A DNA stretch of 63,090 nucleotides from a virus (taxonomy: Duplodnaviria > Caudoviricetes), in the IMG/VR virus record IMGVR_UViG_3300036398_001095, positions 1 through 63,090 of that record; one strand, written 5' to 3'. The notes under the pieces were generated by a model that saw only the letters and a program-made list of their open reading frames with translations, was not told the DNA's origin and did not search any database. The translations under genes and the position numbers were made by a program. The stretch's first letter is position 1; each line of letters starts with the position of its first letter. Positions 13,899-63,090 of the stretch are shown here, in pieces.

Positions 13899-16298
13899 TT
13901 AACCTCCGAAAACTAAAGCCATAGCTATAGCAAAACCTGTTGTAGAAAGAGTTCCAGACGTTGGCAACGTCACGTTCGTTGCACCAGTTGACGTTAAGGT
14001 AATACTGTTTGCACCCGATGTCGCCAAGGTAGAACCGTTAGCCAGTGTTAGCGTGGCGCTTGTTGCCGGTGCTGTGATAGCAACCTTGTTAACACTTGTT
14101 GCCGTTGCTACACCAAGTGTTGGTGTCACTAGCGTGGGGCTGGTAGCAAATACCAGAGAACCTGACCCGGTTTCATCCGTGACTGCCGCTGCAAGGTTAG
14201 CCGATGATGGCGTACCCAAGAAGGTCAGAATACCCGCCGCCGTGGACGTTGTACTTGGTGCAACCCCTGCGCCACCACCAATCACAATTGCATTAGCAGC
14301 CAACGCACCAGAGCTTGCCCAAGTTGTACCGCTTGAGAAGTATGGAATACCACCTGACGTACCAGCAATCGTAAATGCCGGTGTGGTCGTCGCTGTAGCT
14401 ACAGAAACAATACCGCCCGTCCAGCTAACGCTAGTAACCGTTCCCGATCCACCGCCACCCGATGCAGCAATAGTGATGCCGCCAGAGGAGTTAGTAACCG
14501 TGATACCCGAACCAGCAGTCAACGTAGCAAGACTAAAACCCGATCCATTACCAATCAGTAACTGACCATTCGTTGGTGTGGCCGTATTGCCTGTACCACC
14601 GTTACCCGTGGGCAGCGTACCTGTAACCTGAGAGGCTAGGTTGATATTGCTGATCGTATTGTTAGCACCATTGATGGTCTTGTTGGTCAGGGTTTCTGCC
14701 CCTGCCAGCGTCGCTAACGTGCCTGTCGTTGGTAAGGTAACCGATGTATTGCCGTTTAAGGTCAACCCAAGACTGTAGTTACCTGTGAAGGTAATCGTAT
14801 TCAGTGCATTGTTAGATACACCCGTACCGCCATTCGCAGGACTTAAATTACCCGCAACCGTTACTGCACCACCTGTTGCCGTGCTTGGCGTTAGACCTGT
14901 CGTACCAAATGAGATCGTTGCTACGGTATTACTTGTGGTTGCCAAGGTTCCCGATGTGGGAAGCGTGACGTTTGTGGCACCCGTGGAAGTCAACGTGATG
15001 CTATTAGCACCAGAGGTTGCAAGCGTAGATCCATTTGCAAGTGTCAGCGTACCCGTGGTCGTGGATACCGTTAGACCATTCAAACTTGTTGCTGTAGCTA
15101 CACCAAGAACAGGTGTGGTAAGCGTAGGTGATGTTGCCCTAACGACATTCCCCGTACCGGTATTCGCTGTCCAAGTCGGCGCTGTTCCTGTGGAAGTCAG
15201 AACATAGTTAGACGTACCGATGGATAAGAAGCTTGTCGCACCTGATGCTGTCTGATAAGGAACCGATCCCGCTGCACCACCTGCAAGATTCGTAGCCGTC
15301 CCAACCGTCACACCTGATGCAGCACTCCACTGCGGTGCTGTTCCTGAAGACGTAAGGATGGTCGTGCCTAAACCAATCGCAAGCTTGGTAAACGCTGTAC
15401 CCGTGGCGTAGTAAATTAAATCACCAGCGGTGTAACTAGACTGACCTGTGCCACCCTGATCCGTGGCTAGCGTACCTGTAGAGGTAAGTGCCTTAGACCC
15501 ATCCGTAAAGACTGCTTTACTTGCCGTGGCCGAAGATAAAATCGGTGCCGAACTAAAGGTCTGTATGCCCGTAAATGTCTGAGCCGCATCCGTCCGTGCA
15601 ATCGTTGCACTGGTCCCCGGAAAGGTCATCGTGGTGCTATCAGTACCTGCTAGCGTCAGGCTATTACTAGCCGTAAGTGTCTTGCCATCAGCAATGGTCA
15701 GTGTTGCACTAGATGCTGGAGCAGTGATCGTAACTTTGTTGTAAGCCCCGGCTGTGATGTCACCCGTGGTATCAGCGACAAATGCTGCCGAGTTCTGAAT
15801 AACTTTACCCGTCAGACCGTCAAATCTTGCAATTGCGTTATCAGTAGAAGACGCAGGCCCATCTACATCACCCGAAGCAATCTCTTTGAAATCACCGGCA
15901 TTCGTGTCCCAGGCTACCCAAGTCTGTTTACCCGGAGCAACCGAAATACCTGTCGTAGGCCCAGTGCTTCCCCGGATCGTGACATTGAACCCACCAGAGG
16001 TGTTGTTCATCACAATGTAGGCTTTACTGCTATTGGGTACGTTTATGTAGCGTAGTTGCGACCTGGAACCGGTACAGTTCAGGATCATGTACTGGGCTGA
16101 CGTAGACCCAATATTTGTTGCTGCATTCGTGCCTTGAGTATTTACCAGCGTTACATCAGCATCTGTACTTAATGTCTGTGTACCTGCAATTGCAATATCA
16201 AGATAAGCCGTTAGGCCACGATTGACCGCATCACCCCAAGTTCCCGATTCGGTTCCTTGGACTGGGGTAATTAAATCTAATAGACTTGTATAAGGCAT
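13899..16298 (-). CDS. Tail fibre protein
   Basis: T/G/S/A-rich, GTWGD N-terminus, DNAIARFDG, NGGTG repeats, internal duplications. Confidence 0.75.
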   Translation of the reverse strand: MPYTSLLDLITPVQGTESGTWGDAVNRGLTAYLDIAIAGTQTLSTDADVTLVNTQGTNAATNIGSTSAQYMILNCTGSRSQLRYINVPNSSKAYIVMNNTSGGFNVTIRGSTGPTTGISVAPGKQTWVAWDTNAGDFKEIASGDVDGPASSTDNAIARFDGLTGKVIQNSAAFVADTTGDITAGAYNKVTITAPASSATLTIADGKTLTASNSLTLAGTDSTTMTFPGTSATIARTDAAQTFTGIQTFSSAPILSSATASKAVFTDGSKALTSTGTLATDQGGTGQSSYTAGDLIYYATGTAFTKLAIGLGTTILTSSGTAPQWSAASGVTVGTATNLAGGAAGSVPYQTASGATSFLSIGTSNYVLTSTGTAPTWTANTGTGNVVRATSPTLTTPVLGVATATSLNGLTVSTTTGTLTLANGSTLATSGANSITLTSTGATNVTLPTSGTLATTSNTVATISFGTTGLTPSTATGGAVTVAGNLSPANGGTGVSNNALNTITFTGNYSLGLTLNGNTSVTLPTTGTLATLAGAETLTNKTINGANNTISNINLASQVTGTLPTGNGGTGNTATPTNGQLLIGNGSGFSLATLTAGSGITVTNSSGGITIAASGGGGSGTVTSVSWTGGIVSVATATTTPAFTIAGTSGGIPYFSSGTTWASSGALAANAIVIGGGAGVAPSTTSTAAGILTFLGTPSSANLAAAVTDETGSGSLVFATSPTLVTPTLGVATATSVNKVAITAPATSATLTLANGSTLATSGANSITLTSTGATNVTLPTSGTLSTTGFAIAMALVFGG

Positions 16299-25484: not shown

Positions 25485-25524
25485 CCCTACTTTAGTAGCA
25501 AATTCCGCCAGCTGGCGGAATTAC
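25485..25524. repeat. 40-bp dispersed palindromic element, copy 2 (inverted, intergenic)
   Basis: Reverse complement is GTAATTCCGCCAGCTGGCGGAATTTGCTACTAAAGTAGGG. Confidence 0.85.
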
Positions 25525-38165: not shown

Positions 38166-39063
38166 TCAACCTCCTCTGCACCTCTTCCCTAGCTTCCTCC
38201 CTAGGCTGCCACTCTATCTTCGGCACCTCCCCCATCGTCTCCGCATACCATCTCTTAGGATCCTCCCATATCGGCCTCTCCTTTTTTTTCCTACCCCCCT
38301 TATGGGAACCCACTTCTTCTTCTATGGGGGCCTCTTCCGTAGTAATCCCGCCAGCTGGCGGGATTTGATACTTTAGTAGGGGGTGGGGGTCTTCTTCGTC
38401 CGAGGGTAAATTTTTTGCAGATGGTTTGTGTGGATTATTGGACCTAGCGCCGCCCCCAGCCCCCTGGCCACTTTGCCCCTCCCCCCCTACCGTGGGGTCG
38501 CCCTCGTGCGCCTGCGCGTGCGCGGGTGGGTGCTCGCGCGTGTGCTCGTGCGCGTCCACGTCAATCACACCGCCGAGTCGGGCTAGCTTTTCCCGCAAGC
38601 GTGCCGTTGTATCGCCTGCGCGCTCATGGGTTATGACTGTGCGAGTCTGGAAGGCATCAACGTCCGCCAGCTTGCCGAGTAGCTCGAGCGCACGCAGCCG
38701 ATCGCCTGGCTTTTGAGCCGTCCGGGCCTCGTGCTGGAGAGAGTCCACGACAAAGTTTCGGATGTCTAGGGGGTTTTGCGAATACCTCAATCTGTTTACG
38801 CTCGTTTGCTGATCAATCCCTGCACGCACTTTTGGATTGGCTGCAATCCTGCTAGCCGTGCTGCTAATCGTGCTGCTACTGCCGCTCACGTCATACGCTT
38901 GCAGGTAAGCCTCTCGGTTAGTAGCTCCCGCTGCTACCGCTTGCACGAATTGTTTTTGCTTGGCTGTTAGGTCGACGTGAGGCATAAGCACTCTATCTGC
39001 TGGCACTCCGCGCCCTATAGCTCTCACTGCTGCCGGTGGTAGTTCGCTTGCTTCGCTTGCCAT
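38140..39063 (-). CDS. terS: Terminase small subunit
   Basis: LTAKQKQFV...AYLQAY HTH, RLRALELLGK; upstream of TerL. Confidence 0.7.
   Translation of the reverse strand: MASEASELPPAAVRAIGRGVPADRVLMPHVDLTAKQKQFVQAVAAGATNREAYLQAYDVSGSSSTISSTASRIAANPKVRAGIDQQTSVNRLRYSQNPLDIRNFVVDSLQHEARTAQKPGDRLRALELLGKLADVDAFQTRTVITHERAGDTTARLREKLARLGGVIDVDAHEHTREHPPAHAQAHEGDPTVGGEGQSGQGAGGGARSNNPHKPSAKNLPSDEEDPHPLLKYQIPPAGGITTEEAPIEEEVGSHKGGRKKKERPIWEDPKRWYAETMGEVPKIEWQPREEAREEVQRRLNESGEDGQ
38342..38381. repeat. 40-bp dispersed palindromic element, copy 3 (in terS)
   Basis: GTAATCCCGCCAGCTGGCGGGATTTGATACTTTAGTAGGG; encodes LLKYQIPPAGGIT. Confidence 0.9.
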
Positions 39064-43583: not shown

Positions 43584-43756
43584 ACCTTCCCCCCAAGTAG
43601 TAGCCTCAATGAATCCATGACCCAGTACTTCGGGCCTGTCGTTATCCCCGCGGCGATACGCCATATCGATGACTGCGTTACACCAATTGACTTGGCAATC
43701 TGGTGATGCGTCATACCCCTAGCTTCCAACGCTCTCACTATTTCCTGTGGCGTCAT
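43580..43756 (-). CDS. Cro/XRE-like HTH regulator (58 aa)
   Basis: MTPQEIVRALEARGMTHHQIAKSIGVTQSSIWRIAAG; ATGA coupling at both ends; not in the ORF track. Confidence 0.7.
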   Translation of the reverse strand: MTPQEIVRALEARGMTHHQIAKSIGVTQSSIWRIAAGITTGPKYWVMDSLRLLLGGKV

Positions 43757-45276
43757 ACCAATCTCCTGCCAAACTTACTCTTTGCATACTTGATGACCTG
43801 CTGCTTGATCTTGTTCTGTGTAACCATCCTTGGCTCCACAAAGATCGCCTCGTGAAACTTCCACTTAGGCCAATCCCCCGTCAGGTTCTTGTACTGGGCC
43901 TTGGCAAATCGCTCAGCCGCCGCAAGATCCCCACGCTTCCTGTCCTTGCTGATCTGCACAATCTCCCACCAAACAAGACGCTTATCCGACATCCAATCCG
44001 ATGACTTGGTGCCGCCAAACTCCACCATCTGGCCAGCCGTATTCAGTACATTGCTTGCAGACCTGCGCTCTGCCCCGCACGATGGGCACACCCGGCCGCG
44101 GAACATGTACCCGCACGCCGTGCATTTGATCTCTGCCTTCTCTTTCTCAGTGGGCTCCTTGCGTACCTTGGCGTCTAGCTTTCCATCCTCTAATTCCTGT
44201 ACGCCATGGGCAAATACCTCTACCTGATCCTCCCAGAACCGAGTGAGGTTGCCTGCGTGATCCAGCCACACAGCGAAGTCCTTGCCGGGATGCGGGCGCA
44301 TAACCCTGCCCATCTGTTGAATGTGACCCGATAATGATTTTCTATATGGCCTGGCACATACACCGATTTTAATATCTGTAACATCAAATCCTTTTGCCAG
44401 CGCTTCACAAGATATTAATCCGATAATATCGCTGTCAGGTTTTCTGAACTCATCAATTAATTCCCTGCGTCGTTCGTTATTACCATCTTTATAACTGATC
44501 TGCTGAAAGTTATAACCCCTCTGTGCAAACTCTCTGCATAATTCCTCACCGTGTGCAACGGTTGCGCTAAATACAATGGTTTTAACTGGGCCATTAAAAT
44601 GTTTATTGGTAGCCTCGATCCACTCAGAGACGACATCGCCAACGATCTCAACCCCTTGTTTTTCCATGTCTTTTTCTGCCCACTCGCCATCGAACTTAAC
44701 CGCGGCGCCACGCATATCCATCTCAGACTTCGCTACAAACATTTTAACGGGCACTAACCAACCGTCATTAATTAGTTTATCGGTTGTCGTGCTATTTACT
44801 ACGTTAGTAAATATCTTTGATAATCCTTTTGTAAATGGCGTTGCAGTTAATCCAACAACAATTGCATCAGGATATTTTTCAATCGCATTAATTACTGAAC
44901 GGTGTAATACATGCGCTTCATCTACCACTATAAGCTTTGGAGCGTTATCTATCTTGCGTCTTGCCAATGTCTGTGCGGATATAACCTGCACATATTCATA
45001 TGGACGCCAGCGCCAGTGATCCGCCTGTATGACGCCATGAGGTACGCCATACCTATCCAGTGTTGTACTGGTCTGGTCTACCAGTGACACCCGATCGCAT
45101 ATGAACCAAGCTACGTTCTGCTTGGCCCTTGCTTCGTTCAGTAAGTAGCTGGCACTTACAGTCTTGCCCGCTCCGGTGGGCGCCACCAGGATCTGTGACC
45201 GGTGCCCTTTACGGACACCATCACGTAGCTCATCCAGTGCTTTGATTTGGTAGTCACGCAGACTTTCGATCAGCAT
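43753..45276 (-). CDS. Superfamily 2 DNA helicase with a C-terminal Zn ribbon
   Basis: APTGAGKT, VDEAH, GLTATP, QQMGRVMR, CTAC..CPSC. Confidence 0.9.
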   Translation of the reverse strand: MLIESLRDYQIKALDELRDGVRKGHRSQILVAPTGAGKTVSASYLLNEARAKQNVAWFICDRVSLVDQTSTTLDRYGVPHGVIQADHWRWRPYEYVQVISAQTLARRKIDNAPKLIVVDEAHVLHRSVINAIEKYPDAIVVGLTATPFTKGLSKIFTNVVNSTTTDKLINDGWLVPVKMFVAKSEMDMRGAAVKFDGEWAEKDMEKQGVEIVGDVVSEWIEATNKHFNGPVKTIVFSATVAHGEELCREFAQRGYNFQQISYKDGNNERRRELIDEFRKPDSDIIGLISCEALAKGFDVTDIKIGVCARPYRKSLSGHIQQMGRVMRPHPGKDFAVWLDHAGNLTRFWEDQVEVFAHGVQELEDGKLDAKVRKEPTEKEKAEIKCTACGYMFRGRVCPSCGAERRSASNVLNTAGQMVEFGGTKSSDWMSDKRLVWWEIVQISKDRKRGDLAAAERFAKAQYKNLTGDWPKWKFHEAIFVEPRMVTQNKIKQQVIKYAKSKFGRRLV

Positions 45277-46072
45277 GTTTCTTCCAATACATGACTTGTT
45301 TCTTAAGCTCGGCGCACTCCCGCTGCCACTTGTCCCGGGCCTCGGTAAGGTTGTCGATCGTGGACTGCATCTGCTTCATGGTCTGGTAGTGCTCTGTATC
45401 CCTGAGCGCTGTAAGGATCGTGACTTCCTTGGCCAGCTCTTGGTAGTTATCAAGGATCTCTTGGTACTGCTCATTCAGCTCGTCATAGGCCACCTTCAGG
45501 GCGTCATACTTGTCCTGTGCCACGGCTGACTTCAAGACAGGCTTAACGGGCGCTGGAGGCACGTTCTCTGGCTCTTCCTTATCTACCGCCCTGATCGCCT
45601 CTGAAAGGCTCATAGCCCCTTTCTTGACCGCCTCAATGACCTCCTGGTCGCCTGACTGTGCAACCTTCTTGGCCCGCTCTACCGATCGCTTACCTACTCC
45701 AGCACGCTTAGCCATCTCATCTGAGGTAATTCCGCCAGCTGGCGGAATTTGATACTTTCGTAGGGGGGTACCCACGCCTGCCCATGTGCTGCAAGTGACC
45801 ACGGCCATGGCTTTTTGTGCTGGTGATAGATGGCGGCGATGAAGGTTCAGGTCGATGACATAGGCCACTGGGTCTTTGCCATCGTATTCATGGAAGGATG
45901 GATTGATGTCCAGCTGTAAGCAGGCACGGAACCGGTGCCATCCGTCCAGGATCTTGTTCTCGTATGTGGTGATGGGTTCACGCTGCCCGTGGGCTTTGAT
46001 GGATTCCAATAGGTCTTGGAAGTCCTCATCGGGCATGTCAGGGAATGCTGCTGATAACTGGTGTCTTTCCAT
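45254..46072 (-). CDS. ParB-like protein (ParB/Srx N-domain, HTH, coiled coil)
   Basis: ESIKAHGQREPI...ILDGWHRFRAC, NLHRRHLS, EMAKRAGVGKRSVERAK. Confidence 0.85.
   Translation of the reverse strand: MERHQLSAAFPDMPDEDFQDLLESIKAHGQREPITTYENKILDGWHRFRACLQLDINPSFHEYDGKDPVAYVIDLNLHRRHLSPAQKAMAVVTCSTWAGVGTPLRKYQIPPAGGITSDEMAKRAGVGKRSVERAKKVAQSGDQEVIEAVKKGAMSLSEAIRAVDKEEPENVPPAPVKPVLKSAVAQDKYDALKVAYDELNEQYQEILDNYQELAKEVTILTALRDTEHYQTMKQMQSTIDNLTEARDKWQRECAELKKQVMYWKKHADRKSA
45726..45765. repeat. 40-bp dispersed palindromic element, copy 4 (in the parB-like gene)
   Basis: GTAATTCCGCCAGCTGGCGGAATTTGATACTTTCGTAGGG; encodes LRKYQIPPAGGIT. Confidence 0.9.
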
Positions 46073-46089
46073 ATCTCTCTCTTAGTTAA

Positions 46090-47610
46090 TGACGCTCGGT
46101 GACTTTGGTGCTCACGATTTTTTTGACTCACTTCGTTGGCTTGGTTCTCTCAGCGATGGTGGTTCGTTCGTGTACTTTGGTTCTCTCAGCCTGGCTGACT
46201 CACTTCTCTATCCCGGTTCTCTTACCTGCGTTGGTTCGTTCTAGCTCCCTGGGTCTCTCGGCAGTTGCGACTCACTCTCTTACGGTGGATCTCTCACAAA
46301 TAGTGGTTCGTTCGCGTGATTTGGTTCTCTCAGTTTGCATGACTCACTCTCATACCAAGGTTCTATCGCAATCTCTGGTTCGTTCTGGACGATTGGTTCT
46401 CTCTCTTTTTCTGACTCGCTCGGCCGAATTGGTGCTCTTGGCCAACTTGGCTCACTCTCGATTTATGGTTCTCTTCCATTGCTTGGTTCGTTTACAACTT
46501 GTGGTTCTCTCCGTTAACTTGACTCACTCTGGGCGGATGGTGCTCTGGGCTCGAGTGGTTCACTCCAGGGGGATGGTTCTCTCGGGGGGCATGGTTCACT
46601 TGACCGATTAGGTTCTCTCTTCGCTCTAGGTTCGTTCGGCTGACCCGGTTCTTTCTGCGTCGATGACTCACTTGCCAGTCATGGTTCTCTCTAAATCGGT
46701 GGTTCGTTCGGCTGACTCGGTTCTATTCGCGTCGATGACTCACTTCCCGGCAATGGTTCTCTTGCTTGTTTAGGTTCGTTCCTGTTGGCAGGCTCTCTTA
46801 CCCGACATGACTCACTCTATCAACGGTAAAACTATCAGTGGTCTTGGTTCGTTCTGGTGCATTGGTTCTCTCTCGCATGTTGACTCGTTCACCTGCCTTG
46901 GTTCTCTCGGCAACATTGACTCGCTCTGCATATATGGTTCTCTCACGATGACTGACTCGTTCACGATGCGTGGTTCTCTTGGGCGCTATGACTCGTTCGC
47001 ATGAATTGGTTCTATCGGCTTCATTGACTCACTTCCTCAGCATGGTGCTCTTTATACCCCTGGCTCGTTCTGCGTGTATGGTTCTCTCGCTTTTAGTGAC
47101 TCGTTCTGCCACATTGGTTCTCTCTGGACGGATAACTCGTTTGATCTCCTTGGTTCTCTCGATGCTTGTGACTCGTTCTCGTGATATGGGTATCTCGGGC
47201 TTCTTGACTCGTTCGAGACCATTGGTTCTCTCAGCGTTCATGACTCGTTTGCCTCATATGGTTCTCTTCCATCCGCTGACTCGTTCGTGTCATATGGTTC
47301 TCTTCTCGCTATTGACTCGTTCCAAAACCCTGGTTCTCTCTTCACTGTTGACTCGTTCTGACTGATTGGTTCTCTCTTCAAAAATGACTCGTTCTCGCTA
47401 TATGGCGCTCTCGCAACTGATGACTCGTTCTCATGGGCTGGTTCTCTCTTGAAATTTGACTCGTTCGCTTTTGCTGGGCCTCTTTTGTCCTTTGACTCGT
47501 TCTCTTCTGTTGGTTCTCTCGCGCCGAATGACTCGTTCTATGGTTTTGGTTCTATCTTGTTCGATGACTCACTCAATCCATTTGGTGCTCTTGCAGAGCT
47601 TGGTTAAACA
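46090..47610 (-). ncRNA. TIGR (tandem interspaced guide RNA) array, about 42 units of 36 nt
   Basis: Two alternating repeats every 18 nt (minus strand RAGAGAACCA and GAACGAGTCA/RAGTGAGTCA/GAACGAACCA) with variable 8-9 nt spacers; repeat A at 46106+36n, one 1-nt slip at 46827, last copy at 47583; begins at the stop codon of the Nop-domain gene. Confidence 0.88.
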
Positions 47611-48398
47611 GGTGAAGGTATGAAATGAGCATGGCCCATGTGTGCAATCGGATAAGGCAGCGGCGGCTTCGTACCAAAGTGCGTCTCATACCATGCGCCA
47701 TGGAGATGGCTCAGGAATAGCTTGACCGCATACCTTCTTGCCCTTGCATCGATCTGGCCCGGTGGCAGTACGCCATTGGACAGATGCTTAAAAGCTTCCG
47801 TGGTCTTGCCTACCTTCTCCTTCAGTTGCTCGGCCAGTTCCTTGTTATCACCACGCTCATTGCGGGCGATCTCAAAGTTCTTGCGCTCCCTGTAAATGTG
47901 ACCGTAGTAGCAGTCATCACGGCCAGAGAATTTCATGAAGGATTGGCCGGCCTTCCAGCAAAGCGTCTTCAGTCCTGCATTCCATGGGCGCTTCTGTCCC
48001 TTCTCCCATTTGCTTGTGGGATCTAATCCAGCATAGCGCCAGATATGCCCAACGGTAGGAGCCTTCTCAATATCAATGTGCGCTAACAGCCCCGCGGAAA
48101 TGACCGGGCCGATGCCAACGATCTGACGCATCCATGCACCCATGACATGCGACTCAGTGTAGGAATCAAGCGCCTTCTTGATCTGCTCTTCCAGCCCCTT
48201 GGATTGGGATGCTAGCCAGCCGATCACTGCATTGGGCTCCATGGATTCATCCAGCGCCCGGACTTGGTTGGTGGAGCGCTTACGGTCTTCTTGGGCGATG
48301 TAGTAGTAATCGACCAGGAATCTTGCCTCATCATCAGACAGCTTGGCGGCTGCGACTTTAAGGTCTTTGGTCAGCTTCATGATTGGTTCTAAGTTCAT
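47604..48398 (-). CDS. tasA: TasA-like Nop/IS110-domain RNA-binding protein without RuvC or HNH domain
   Basis: N-terminal coiled coil, IVGIGPVISAGLL, IWRYAGLDP, ARARRYAVKLFLSHL; 264 aa, no DEDD domain or IS110 Ser-Gly loop; adjacent 36-nt array. Confidence 0.85.
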   Translation of the reverse strand: MNLEPIMKLTKDLKVAAAKLSDDEARFLVDYYYIAQEDRKRSTNQVRALDESMEPNAVIGWLASQSKGLEEQIKKALDSYTESHVMGAWMRQIVGIGPVISAGLLAHIDIEKAPTVGHIWRYAGLDPTSKWEKGQKRPWNAGLKTLCWKAGQSFMKFSGRDDCYYGHIYRERKNFEIARNERGDNKELAEQLKEKVGKTTEAFKHLSNGVLPPGQIDARARRYAVKLFLSHLHGAWYETHFGTKPPLPYPIAHMGHAHFIPSPV

Positions 48399-48664
48399 AG
48401 TTTCCCCGCTAGGTTGAATGGGTCATGCCAACTAAATTGTTTATAGGTGTAAAGCAACTGATTAAATCGGACCGGGTGTTTGGTTGCTGTGACATAACCA
48501 AGCCCAGTCAGTAAACGCAAACGCTCTGCCGCCGTGGTTCTTGAGACGCCAAAGTGTTTTGCAGCATCCTCTGACGTGAAAGGTTCTTTACGTTCCTTTA
48601 TCCACGCCAGATAAGATTCATCGATGGGTTTCACTACTACCCCCTTGCCAAGTACCACGCCCAT
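48395..48664 (-). CDS. Winged-helix DNA-binding protein coupled to tasA
   Basis: FTSEDAAKHFGVSRTTAAERLRLL..LG; ATGA overlap. Confidence 0.65.
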   Translation of the reverse strand: MGVVLGKGVVVKPIDESYLAWIKERKEPFTSEDAAKHFGVSRTTAAERLRLLTGLGYVTATKHPVRFNQLLYTYKQFSWHDPFNLAGKL

Positions 48665-48807
48665 CGGCGCTTCTTGGCGATCATTTCTAAGTAACGCTTG
48701 ATGTAGGTTTTGATTTCAACGCCTAACGCCTTGGCGTAAAGCACGTCCGCCCGTGACACGATGATCTTGCCTACCCTGTCTTCACCTCTCACTTTGCGAA
48801 CTTTCAT
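48637..48807 (-). CDS. Small hypothetical protein
   Basis: AKALGVEIKTY; ATGA coupling. Confidence 0.5.
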   Translation of the reverse strand: MKVRKVRGEDRVGKIIVSRADVLYAKALGVEIKTYIKRYLEMIAKKRRWAWYLARG

Positions 48808-49016
48808 GCTTGCCCCCTTGCTCGTATGGCAGCGGCGCACCACGTTGCCAATACATCTTGACCTTCGTACTCGGTGTCGATGTCCTCACACGCCTTCGCA
48901 CACGCCTCACGCTCGGCAGCGGCAATGATGGTGGCGAACTCTGCGAGTGACTCTGCGGTAAAAGCATAAATGCCGTACTCGTTCCTCGCCATGCGGATGA
49001 TTTCGTCGCGATTCAT
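48804..49016 (-). CDS. Small protein, EREACA..C...AIRARG family
   Basis: Paralogue of 49013-49270. Confidence 0.6.
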   Translation of the reverse strand: MNRDEIIRMARNEYGIYAFTAESLAEFATIIAAAEREACAKACEDIDTEYEGQDVLATWCAAAIRARGQA

Positions 49017-49270
49017 GTGTTTCCCCTTGCTCGTATGGCGGTGGTGCACTGTCTTGCACCGCTTGCCATTCCTTGATCTTCTGGATATGCAAACTTGTCC
49101 CAAAGTTCTTCGGCTCGTGATTCAACTTCTTCACACGCCTCCGCACACGCCCTACGTTCATGCTCAGCAACAAGGGCAGCGAAGCGTGTTACAGAGCCTA
49201 GTGGCTTTTCGTCAGATCCGTAAGCCAATCCAGCCTCCCGCGCAAGCTTGATGATGTCTTGGTGGTCCAT
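49013..49270 (-). CDS. Small protein, ERRACA..C...AIRARG family
   Basis: DIIKLAREAG...RFAALVAEHER. Confidence 0.6.
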   Translation of the reverse strand: MDHQDIIKLAREAGLAYGSDEKPLGSVTRFAALVAEHERRACAEACEEVESRAEELWDKFAYPEDQGMASGARQCTTAIRARGNT

Positions 49271-49470
49271 CAGAACGGCGCCTCTTCAATAGGCTCCTCG
49301 GCCACGGGTTGCTTCTCAAGCACCTCTCCGTCTTCGCAGTAGTGGTACTTAAATGGCCATTTATCGCCAAGCTGTTTGATGATTTCGTCCATGGTTATCT
49401 CCTTGTCGGTAGGAGTATTTAACCACAGTTTTATGCGTTTGTGCATACCGTTCGTCAGGTCGATGAACGG

Positions 49471-50118
49471 TCAGAAGATGCGTAGCTTCACGTCCTTTAG
49501 ATGCACTTCTTGGGTCGGCTCGGCATCACGCCAGTCGGTCATGTCCCAATTACCCTTGCCATGGTTGCATGGACTGCAAAGTACTTGTAAATTTTGTAAC
49601 GATAATGCCAGATGAGGAAAGAGTTTGCGTGGCTTGATATGGTCAACATTGATACGCACACCATCGGCCGCGGTGGCACCACAGCACTGGCACCTAGCGC
49701 CGTATTTCTTCAGCGCTTCCATACGAACCCTGCGCCATTCATAAGTCTCAAGGAAAGCATCAGAAGCCGGGTTGACTTTGTTGGCCTGCCATTTGGCGGC
49801 TAGGTCATTGTTGGATAGCTTGGCATCCTGCTTAGCCTGTCGCGCTTTTACTTCCTTGTGGTTAGGTATAGCAACCTTGACCGACGGCATCTGAAAGCCA
49901 GCGCCATACAAAGCGTTCTTGGCGGTATCGTACTTCGCCCCCTTGTGCCTCATGAATGAAAGCAGCTGATCCGCCATGTGCTCAGTAACAAGCATATGCC
50001 CGTACTTGGCTAGCCATCCCTTCTTGGGCGGATACGGTATGCCAAATACCCTAGCCTCTACGCCAGATAGCGTTGAAGCGCATCCGTATTTTTTCAGCAA
50101 GTACGTTTTGATATTCAT
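49471..50118 (-). CDS. HNH endonuclease
   Basis: CQCCG...VDHIKP...NLQVLCSPCNHGK. Confidence 0.85.
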   Translation of the reverse strand: MNIKTYLLKKYGCASTLSGVEARVFGIPYPPKKGWLAKYGHMLVTEHMADQLLSFMRHKGAKYDTAKNALYGAGFQMPSVKVAIPNHKEVKARQAKQDAKLSNNDLAAKWQANKVNPASDAFLETYEWRRVRMEALKKYGARCQCCGATAADGVRINVDHIKPRKLFPHLALSLQNLQVLCSPCNHGKGNWDMTDWRDAEPTQEVHLKDVKLRIF

Positions 50119-50611: not shown

Positions 50612-50640
50612 ATGATACCATGAACTCCACGGCTAGTCCA
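50612..50640 (-). promoter_or_regulatory. Sigma70 promoter TGGACT-17-TATCAT with extended -10
   Basis: Directly upstream of the c4-like RNA and the HNH-tasA-parB-helicase-primase genes. Confidence 0.55.
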
Positions 50641-50660
50641 TGGTCGTGTCTCCTGGTTGT

Positions 50661-50864
50661 TTAGGTCTTCCCCCGGCTCCCCTCGCCGGGGTTTTTTTTG
50701 AGCCAGTTACTGAATGCCTGTGTATCAGCCAGTAGCTTGATGGACCTGATCTGCAACTCCAGTGCCGTGCGCTCTGCCACTTCCCGCCTCACCTGAAGTT
50801 TCACTGACTGAGGTATCGATTCGATCATGTCGTTCACGATCGCCTTGCGTATACGTGGATCCAT
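50661..50864 (-). CDS. Small hypothetical protein
   Basis: GAGG RBS, helical. Confidence 0.5.
   Translation of the reverse strand: MDPRIRKAIVNDMIESIPQSVKLQVRREVAERTALELQIRSIKLLADTQAFSNWLKKNPGEGSRGKT
50671..50699 (+). terminator. Rho-independent terminator on the plus strand
   Basis: CCCCGGC-7nt-GCCGGGG followed by T8. Confidence 0.6.
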
Positions 50865-62924: not shown

Positions 62925-63090
62925 CGCCACAAATTGCTCGAAATATTTCTGATCAACAGGCGTTTCTGTGAAGATTTCTGGCGGTACTTGATAGCCAACA
63001 CTTGAAGGTTGTGGCGTAAGTGCTTGATCTGTAACAATGTCAGGGGTAATCCCGCCAGCTGGCGGGATTTGATACTTTAGTAGGGTGTCG
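62925..63090. repeat. Terminal direct repeat / circular overlap, copy 2
   Basis: Same sequence as 1-166; implies a 62,924-bp circular map. Confidence 0.95.

Follow-up and report, generated by a model that had tools for sequence, protein, structure and literature searches.

We examined a locus in the virus record IMGVR_UViG_3300036398_001095 (Duplodnaviria; Caudoviricetes); the window is the whole record, 63,090 bases long and rated 100% complete by estimate. On its minus strand, a tightly packed gene run comprises a winged helix-turn-helix (wHTH) gene, tasA, an array of short repeats, a parB-like gene and a helicase gene, and the helicase neighbour places the locus in a replication module. 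We consider it very likely that the locus is a dual-repeat TIGR-TasA system of the tasParB type, embedded in a phage replication-gene operon, whose mechanism can be proposed by homology. It is a clear, well-preserved member of a known family and adds no new principle; the tasA-array-parB layout is already in print (Faure et al. 2025, PMC12045711, cited below by section where a particular section is concerned).

The 264-aa product of tasA was assigned to its family by profile, sequence and fold. The NCBIfam model NF052498 (TIGR-Tas) matched it with an E value of 4e-66 and 223 bits (cut-off 100) over profile positions 1–214 of 215; none of 14 control genomes gave a match above the cut-off. Among structures in the PDB, the sequence matched TasR (9mty, E 2e-12) and TasH (E 2e-10), and these matches reached 1e-19 and 3e-12, respectively, when a profile was used. 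An AlphaFold model built on 21 homologues (pLDDT 84.9) consists of a coiled coil and a Nop domain only, with the coiled-coil hairpin spanning approximately residues 22–83. The ten best Foldseek matches of this model were all TasR or TasH chains (probability 1.0, template modelling (TM) score 0.55–0.68 over 244–260 columns), followed by the IS110-family recombinases ISCro4 and IS621. No HNH, RuvC or DEDD domain was found in the protein by Pfam, NCBIfam or alignment with TasH of Salicola phage CGphi29 (SpTasH). The 264-aa protein is a Tas-family member without a nuclease domain. A reading made earlier from the sequence only had proposed this identity, to be checked by hidden Markov model and structure comparison, from the motifs GIGPVISAGLL and WRYAGLDP and from the lack of a RuvC, HNH or IS110 catalytic part; both motifs are present in the translation, and the domain searches, the alignment and the model agree on what is missing.

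The coding sequence of SpTasH, which we located by tblastn at 14395–15324 of the CGphi29 record, was aligned with TasA. Y249 (47652–47654) and H256 (47631–47633) fall in the alignment columns of SpTasH Y289 and H296, which the cited part of PMC13421893 gives as the catalytic residues for pre-tigRNA processing. By this alignment, Y249 and H256 form a putative pre-tigRNA processing dyad. H256 is invariant in 21 of 21 homologues, and position 249 is Tyr in 18 and Phe in three. According to section 10 of a preprint (Xu 2026, 10.64898/2026.09.09.750476), the Y/H loop is typical of dual-repeat systems, whereas stem-loop Tas clades are without it. Elsewhere in the protein, the TasA homologues of loci L031, L034 and L038 carry a Cys-rich insertion of about 30–45 residues after the GIGPVISAG helix, and in those of L020–L023 about 50 inserted residues follow the WRYAGLDP motif.

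The fold shared with IS110-family enzymes raises the alternative that the gene is a decayed IS110-family transposase and the array a degenerate bridge-RNA region, together a remnant of a mobile element. Pfam Transposase_20 does match the protein (E 1.8e-4), PHROG 4285 is annotated 'transposase', and weaker matches to IS621 and ISCro4 were obtained in structure and in sequence. However, the IS110 model NF033542 reaches only 24.7 bits against a cut-off of 140, compared with the 223 bits of the TIGR-Tas model, and the protein begins at the coiled coil, with no DEDD/RuvC N-terminal domain. The reading frame is intact and is retained at 47–100% identity across 39 viral loci that have arrays of their own. 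We regard a transposase remnant as extremely improbable.

The array has 85 repeat positions in an 18-nt register. In a position-weight scan, 80 repeats were detected, and the steps between them measure exactly 18 nt in 76 cases, 36 nt in two and 37 nt in one; the only irregularity of the register is a single 19-nt row (46836–46818). Over 82 rows, ten repeat columns carry 0.55–1.9 bits of information each and eight spacer columns 0.01–0.16 bits. Thus defined, two 10-nt repeats alternate with near-random 8-nt spacers, and a unit consists of an edge repeat, an 8-nt spacer A, a loop repeat and an 8-nt spacer B, giving 42 units and 84 spacers. Among the 42 loop-position repeats, 18 read exactly GAGAGAACCA (plus strand TGGTTCTCTC); the edge form GAACGAGTCA (plus strand TGACTCGTTC) is found exactly in 14 of 43. 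As C box, loop repeats have CCA and edge repeats mostly UCA. The G+C content of the spacers is 50.5%, against 50.4% for the genome, and no Rfam family matched the array.

Both ends of the array are formed by truncated edge repeats: the first, truncated at its 5' end, lies over the TAA stop codon of tasA (47606–47604), and the last, truncated at its 3' end, stands 20 nt ahead of the parB start codon. Truncated edge repeats at both ends are part of the layout described by Faure et al. (section 4). The distal half shows a 72-nt super-period in Tandem Repeats Finder because the edge variants GAGTGAGTCA and GAACGAACCA alternate there. The sequence-only reading had described a 1.5-kb stretch of 18/36-nt periodicity in which two repeats alternate with variable spacers of 8–9 nt and which starts at the tasA stop codon. 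This description stands, the one 9-nt spacer being that of unit 22. Its count of 42 copies of repeat A is correct for loop positions and fails for exact copies, of which there are 18.

Since 36 nt equals 12 codons, the periodicity could also be that of a gene for a 12-aa repeat protein, evidence for which the earlier reading had itself named as a refutation, and the plus strand does contain open reading frames at 46099–46611 (170 aa) and 46970–47365 (131 aa). Stop codons nevertheless interrupt all six frames of the window array, with 6–29 per frame, and each of 12 arrays examined has at least two in every frame; the array is therefore not a repeat protein. The 19-nt row also breaks every frame, and the variable columns are near-random, so that the chance of a translated array is negligible.

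The pairing between edge repeats was used to test the guide model on the array. In the TasR structure, the box after one spacer base-pairs with the box before the next (PMC12045711, section 8 and legend to Fig. 6G), and the same paper, in the part cited, describes a second pair added by edge repeats, the pairs joining two different edge repeats in the processed guide. In the window array, all 42 units have edge positions 3 and 4 paired with positions 8 and 7, respectively, of the edge repeat before, and in 39 of the 42 both trans pairs are strictly Watson-Crick. When the order of the edge repeats was shuffled 2000 times, the strict count averaged 20.3 (sd 2.7) and never exceeded 29. In cis, inside one edge repeat, both positions pair in only 31 of 41 cases, strictly in 18. 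Edge variants that occur only once are compensated in the neighbouring repeat, and GAGTGAGTCA and GAACGAACCA alternate because each pairs with the other and not with itself. In loop repeats, positions 3 and 8 pair in 36 of 42 and positions 4 and 7 in only two, a pattern that matches the published distinction between loop and edge repeats. Pairing of edge repeats in trans in this array is a new observation of the present analysis.

Three of the trans pairs are G-U, and the opposite strand would have C-A mismatches in their place. Across the related loci, 563 of 609 edge-to-edge steps are paired in the better register, compared with 55 of 589 in the other, with at least five pair combinations; the register was assigned by positional parity and the better of the two was picked for each chain, which favours the first number, although the contrast remains large. 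In 36 of 41 loci, repeat chains share the strand of tasA, and no locus has them on the opposite strand. The G-U pairs and this fixed orientation therefore point to an RNA read from the tasA strand. Trans pairing thus fixes both the strand and the unit register of the array and shows that the functional unit extends between consecutive edge repeats. The base-pair covariation fits processed edge-to-edge guides.

Homologues of TasA with 47–100% identity are encoded in 39 IMG/VR loci, and in 36 of these a 36-nt periodic stretch lies beside the gene. The arrays of the relatives contain 7 to 94 detected repeats and are located downstream of tasA, upstream of it or on both sides; the 94 detected repeats of L028 are spread over 2.1 kb, and relatives reach at least 44 units. 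The 42 units of the window array are therefore long, set against the "most often 5 to 15" units that the cited passage of Faure et al. gives for TIGR arrays, but they are not unique. A homologue of the ParB-like protein follows the array in nine of the 41 related loci, all of them close relatives. The mobile core is thus tasA plus the array, and the pairing with ParB belongs to a sub-lineage. None of ten genes found downstream of tasA or its array in other loci is ParB-like; they include genes for a polymerase, a portal protein, a helicase, an exonuclease, an ATPase and a kinase.

These distributions bear on another reading, in which the tandem repeats are a centromere or iteron array that acts as DNA and is bound by the ParB-like protein, in the manner of F sopC or plasmid parC. 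The array does adjoin a parB-like gene in a replication module, and known plasmid centromeres are tandem repeats beside parB. The array, however, keeps company with tasA rather than with parB: arrays accompany tasA in 36 of the 41 loci, always in the orientation of tasA, while ParB is confined to the nine noted above and the downstream genes sampled elsewhere lack it. The G-U pairs in the edge-repeat covariation indicate a constraint at the RNA level, and the spacers vary among phages whose TasA proteins are 98–100% identical, unlike the homogeneous repeats of a centromere. A DNA-level centromere is very unlikely.

To follow the turnover of guides, the window array was compared unit by unit with those of six close relatives, units being counted as shared at three mismatches or fewer. 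Shared units are collinear across the relatives, with offsets that shift by multiples of 36. No counterpart in any of the six relatives was seen for 13 of the 42 window units, nine of which belong to units 3–20; half of this 18-unit segment is thus absent from the six relatives and the segment is mostly private to the phage, whereas units 1–2 and most of 21–42 are shared. The degenerate unit 22 is conserved in five of the six. In the comparison with L006, the retained units differ at 11 of 352 spacer bases, whereas identity at the third-codon positions of tasA is only 83%; this hints at selection on retained units or at their recent exchange, in a comparison that the sharing threshold itself biases. 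Because units 25 and 27 are near-duplicates, growth of the array by duplication is suggested.

The ParB-like protein has an N-terminal ParB/Srx-type region, a helix-turn-helix and a C-terminal coiled coil. It matches PHROG 4715 (E 2.5e-17) and PHROG 12047 (E 5e-12), and TIGR00180 below the cut-off (E 5.6e-6). Its gene, on the same strand and 20 nt after the array, occupies the position of the 'tasParB' of Faure et al., who describe a tasA-tasParB operon with 10-nt repeats (section 44); in the literature that we searched, tasParB is mentioned by a single paper. A perfect 22-bp palindrome lies inside the linker-encoding part of the parB-like gene (45728–45749), and four further copies with 0–2 mismatches occur in the window, at 124–145, 25501–25522, 38344–38365 and 63048–63069, with none expected by chance. 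The parB genes of relatives have the palindrome at the same place, with symmetric changes that preserve it, and extra copies are present in L007 and L017. We regard the palindrome as a candidate parS-like site of the ParB-like protein.

TasA and the ParB-like protein might conceivably work as one machine, in which TasA ribonucleoproteins (RNPs) would mark 42 DNA sites, a ParB-like clamp would load on the 22-bp palindromes, and the pair would bridge the two or spread between them. Such a machine could anchor the phage genome, for its inheritance, at sites that the guides specify on another replicon; alternatively, it could silence a competitor at a distance and not just where the RNP is bound. 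There could be a second twist: with the array located within the replication operon, processing by TasA would sever the mRNA between tasA and the parB and helicase genes, creating feedback between guide production and the expression of replication genes. We think this combined scheme unlikely, and offer it as speculation.

For the TIGR-TasA system itself, the following sequence of events can be proposed. The operon transcript would read through the array, and TasA dimers would bind each unit by the two boxes that directly flank every spacer, (C/U)CA ahead of it and A-R behind it. The Y249/H256 loop would then cut inside each edge repeat, probably near position 5/6, and release 42 RNAs of 36 nt, each made of a 5' half-edge, the 8-nt spacer A, a loop repeat, the 8-nt spacer B and a 3' half-edge, with the ends closed by a 2-bp stem. 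Binding of 36-nt RNAs by TasA is reported in PMC12045711 (section 5). Each RNP would recognize a DNA site of 16–18 bp, with spacers A and B on opposite strands, and, having no nuclease, would block transcription or replication of the target instead of cutting it. By analogy with other TasA proteins, the phage would thus make about 40 guides for DNA binding without cutting; one such protein showed RNA-guided repression of transcription and bound target DNA in an electrophoretic mobility shift assay (Xu 2026 preprint, section 12).

Targets were sought as spacer A, 0–2 free bases and the reverse complement of spacer B, a geometry drawn from the statement of an 8-nt 3' overhang in PMC12045711, section 7. 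The 83 consecutive spacer pairs gave no perfect, one one-mismatch and nine two-mismatch matches in the window with the array masked, compared with 0, 2 and 13 for the mirrored geometry and means of 0, 0.35 and 7.25 for shuffled spacers. In 348,457 bases of related loci, the same pairs gave one one-mismatch match, against four in the control, and 844 spacer pairs of other loci gave no perfect and four one-mismatch matches in the window, against five in the control. Unit 2, which is kept in five relatives and is the one unit of 42 searched in this way, was compared with IMG/VR and matched 93 stretches in 45 flank clusters, the mirrored control giving 31 stretches in 20 clusters. The larger clusters lie in conserved genes of unrelated phages; these genes encode, among others, a large structural protein in AT-rich phages and a protein containing the motif AIEQYGL. 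The excess is not separable from codon or motif bias, and we count it as no finding. The competing phages, mobile elements or host genes that the earlier reading had suggested as targets did not emerge from these searches of spacer A with reverse-complemented spacer B.

With no DNA target turned up, a genuine TIGR-TasA system could be supposed to act on RNA instead, or as a modification guide resembling box C/D; the Nop fold is common to the proteins of box C/D small nucleolar RNPs (PMC12045711, discussion). Against this, a search that detected fibrillarin in control genomes gave none in the 63-kb genome (the search did not extend to L7Ae), TasR was inactive on RNA substrates in the experiments of PMC12045711, section 7, and another TasA binds double-stranded DNA (10.64898/2026.09.09.750476, section 12). 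We hold an RNA-acting system to be highly improbable.

Several observations weigh against a DNA-binding dual-repeat TIGR-TasA system. The box after the spacer is A-G or A-A, compared with U-G in the TasR structure, and each spacer has eight freely variable positions, compared with the usual nine; section 8 of PMC12045711 allows divergent box motifs. The pair that joins the second base of box D to the first of box C is retained, in cis in 36 of 42 loop repeats and in trans in all 42 edge repeats. Self-processing may not be universal in the clade, with Phe in place of Y249 in three of 21 homologues. No promoter-like site was found in 45000–49400, so that co-transcription of tasA and the array is suggested by gene order. 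In the same scan, no terminator-like site was found after the array on the minus strand, where parB begins 20 nt beyond; TIGR arrays typically end with a terminator, as stated in the cited part of Faure et al. No target rose above control level in the phage, in 348 kb of relatives or, for unit 2, in IMG/VR. Contigs from RNA libraries (four runs from three studies) include tasA, parB and portions of the array, and one contig spans the tasA/array junction, but such libraries may contain DNA, and the contigs can give neither strand nor RNA ends nor proof of transcription.

We compared the locus with the known systems closest to it. With the TIGR-TasA/tasParB loci of Faure et al. (sections 4, 10 and 44), it shares a solo Nop-domain Tas protein, 10-nt dual repeats, a phage location, an array between tasA and a parB-like gene, truncated edge ends and a second edge pair supported by covariation; it differs from what those sections describe in its longer array, an A-R box in place of U-G, the lack of a terminator-like site after the array and the alternating distal edge variants. 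SpTasH (PDB 9W03, 9W04 and 21KL) is likewise phage-borne and shares with the window TasA the Nop domain and coiled coil at 27% identity, the Tyr/His pair with the same 7-residue spacing, and 8+8-nt spacers (PMC12045711, section 6; PMC13421893, as cited). In contrast, it has at its N terminus an HNH nuclease, about 65 residues long, that the window TasA lacks, and so cuts DNA. TaTasR (PDB 9MTY) is the best match in sequence and fold and has the same guide geometry, with a 36-nt guide, a tetraloop-like loop repeat and a 2-bp edge stem, but its RuvC is active, its spacers are 9 nt long and its boxes are UG and CCA.

The nuclease-less, DNA-binding proteins MbTasA and PlTasA (10.64898/2026.09.09.750476 and 10.64898/2026.08.11.744272, in the parts cited) provide the analogy for activity: MbTasA represses transcription, and what they do is what the window TasA would be expected to do. 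PlTasA uses stem-loop guides and MbTasA comes from a study centred on stem-loop Tas clades without the Y/H loop, whereas the window locus is of the dual-repeat type and keeps the loop. The IS110/IS621 bridge-RNA recombinases have an RNA-binding Nop-like domain in common with TasA; the window protein is without their DEDD and Tnp catalytic domains, and a many-guide array stands in place of a single bridge RNA.

The description of the TIGR-Tas family dates from 2025, and the locus is relevant to what nuclease-less TasA proteins may do in nature, especially those paired with ParB. It is a clean natural test case, with a phage genome that is complete by estimate and a long array in two zones of different age, and dozens of sequenced relatives allow the turnover of guides to be followed. 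The alternating edge variants, which pair only across units, amount to a built-in compensatory experiment. The locus thereby offers material on the growth of TIGR arrays, on possible selection acting on spacers and on the contribution of ParB.

Table 1. Position and assignment of the genes and array segments at the tasA locus.
Feature	Coordinates	Strand	Evidence or description
wHTH/HTH gene, 89 aa	48395–48664	-	Pfam HTH_11 and HTH_IclR, below cut-offs; PHROG transcription regulators
tasA, 264-aa nuclease-less TIGR-associated Nop-domain protein	47604–48398	-	NF052498, PDB matches, fold matches, SpTasH alignment
Dual-repeat TIGR array (1.5 kb)	46093–47610	-	42 units of 36 nt, one of 37
Proximal zone, units 1–21	46855–47610	-	Edge repeats mostly GAACGAGTCA
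Unit 22, 37 nt	46818–46854	-	Degenerate loop repeat GATAGTTTTA without CCA, 9-nt spacer; zone boundary
Distal zone, units 23–42 and terminal truncated edge repeat	46093–46817	-	Edge variants GAGTGAGTCA and GAACGAACCA alternate
ParB-like gene, 272 aa	45254–46072	-	PHROG 4715, PHROG 12047, TIGR00180, homologues after the array in relatives
Superfamily-2 DNA helicase	43753–45276	-	PHROG 16 (E 7e-73); Pfam ResIII and Helicase_C

At the two ends of the gene run, the stop codon of the wHTH gene overlaps the start codon of tasA, and the helicase gene overlaps the end of parB. The wHTH protein is probably not a core part of the system, because among the loci it is restricted to the closest relatives. 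A stand-alone gene for a 215-aa HNH endonuclease (49471–50118, minus strand) belongs to the same gene run, about 1 kb upstream, and is kept in several relatives; its product is not specifically related to the HNH of SpTasH (E 2.6) and resembles PtuB-type HNH proteins in PADLOC. Upstream of the operon, 50626–50699 on the plus strand gives a sub-threshold Rfam match to the Burkholderia anti-hemB small RNA (33.8 bits, gathering score 49.5, E 4e-5).

The locus had no blastn match among 50,697 deposited phages, and tblastn against deposited phages found only relatives of TasA below 30% identity, in 82 records that are mostly Mycobacterium phages. These distant genes were seen in 79 Mycobacterium phage records, a Microcystis phage and a Salicola phage, and are labelled 'transposase', 'hypothetical protein' or 'DNA binding domain protein'. 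A search of 185,579 species genomes matched only L041 and L042 (TasA identity 69–71%), two contigs of one Candidatus Propionivibrio aalborgensis assembly. There is a weak hint that the hosts are Betaproteobacteria. Sequencing runs containing DNA of the window come from lake, freshwater, estuary and soil metagenomes.

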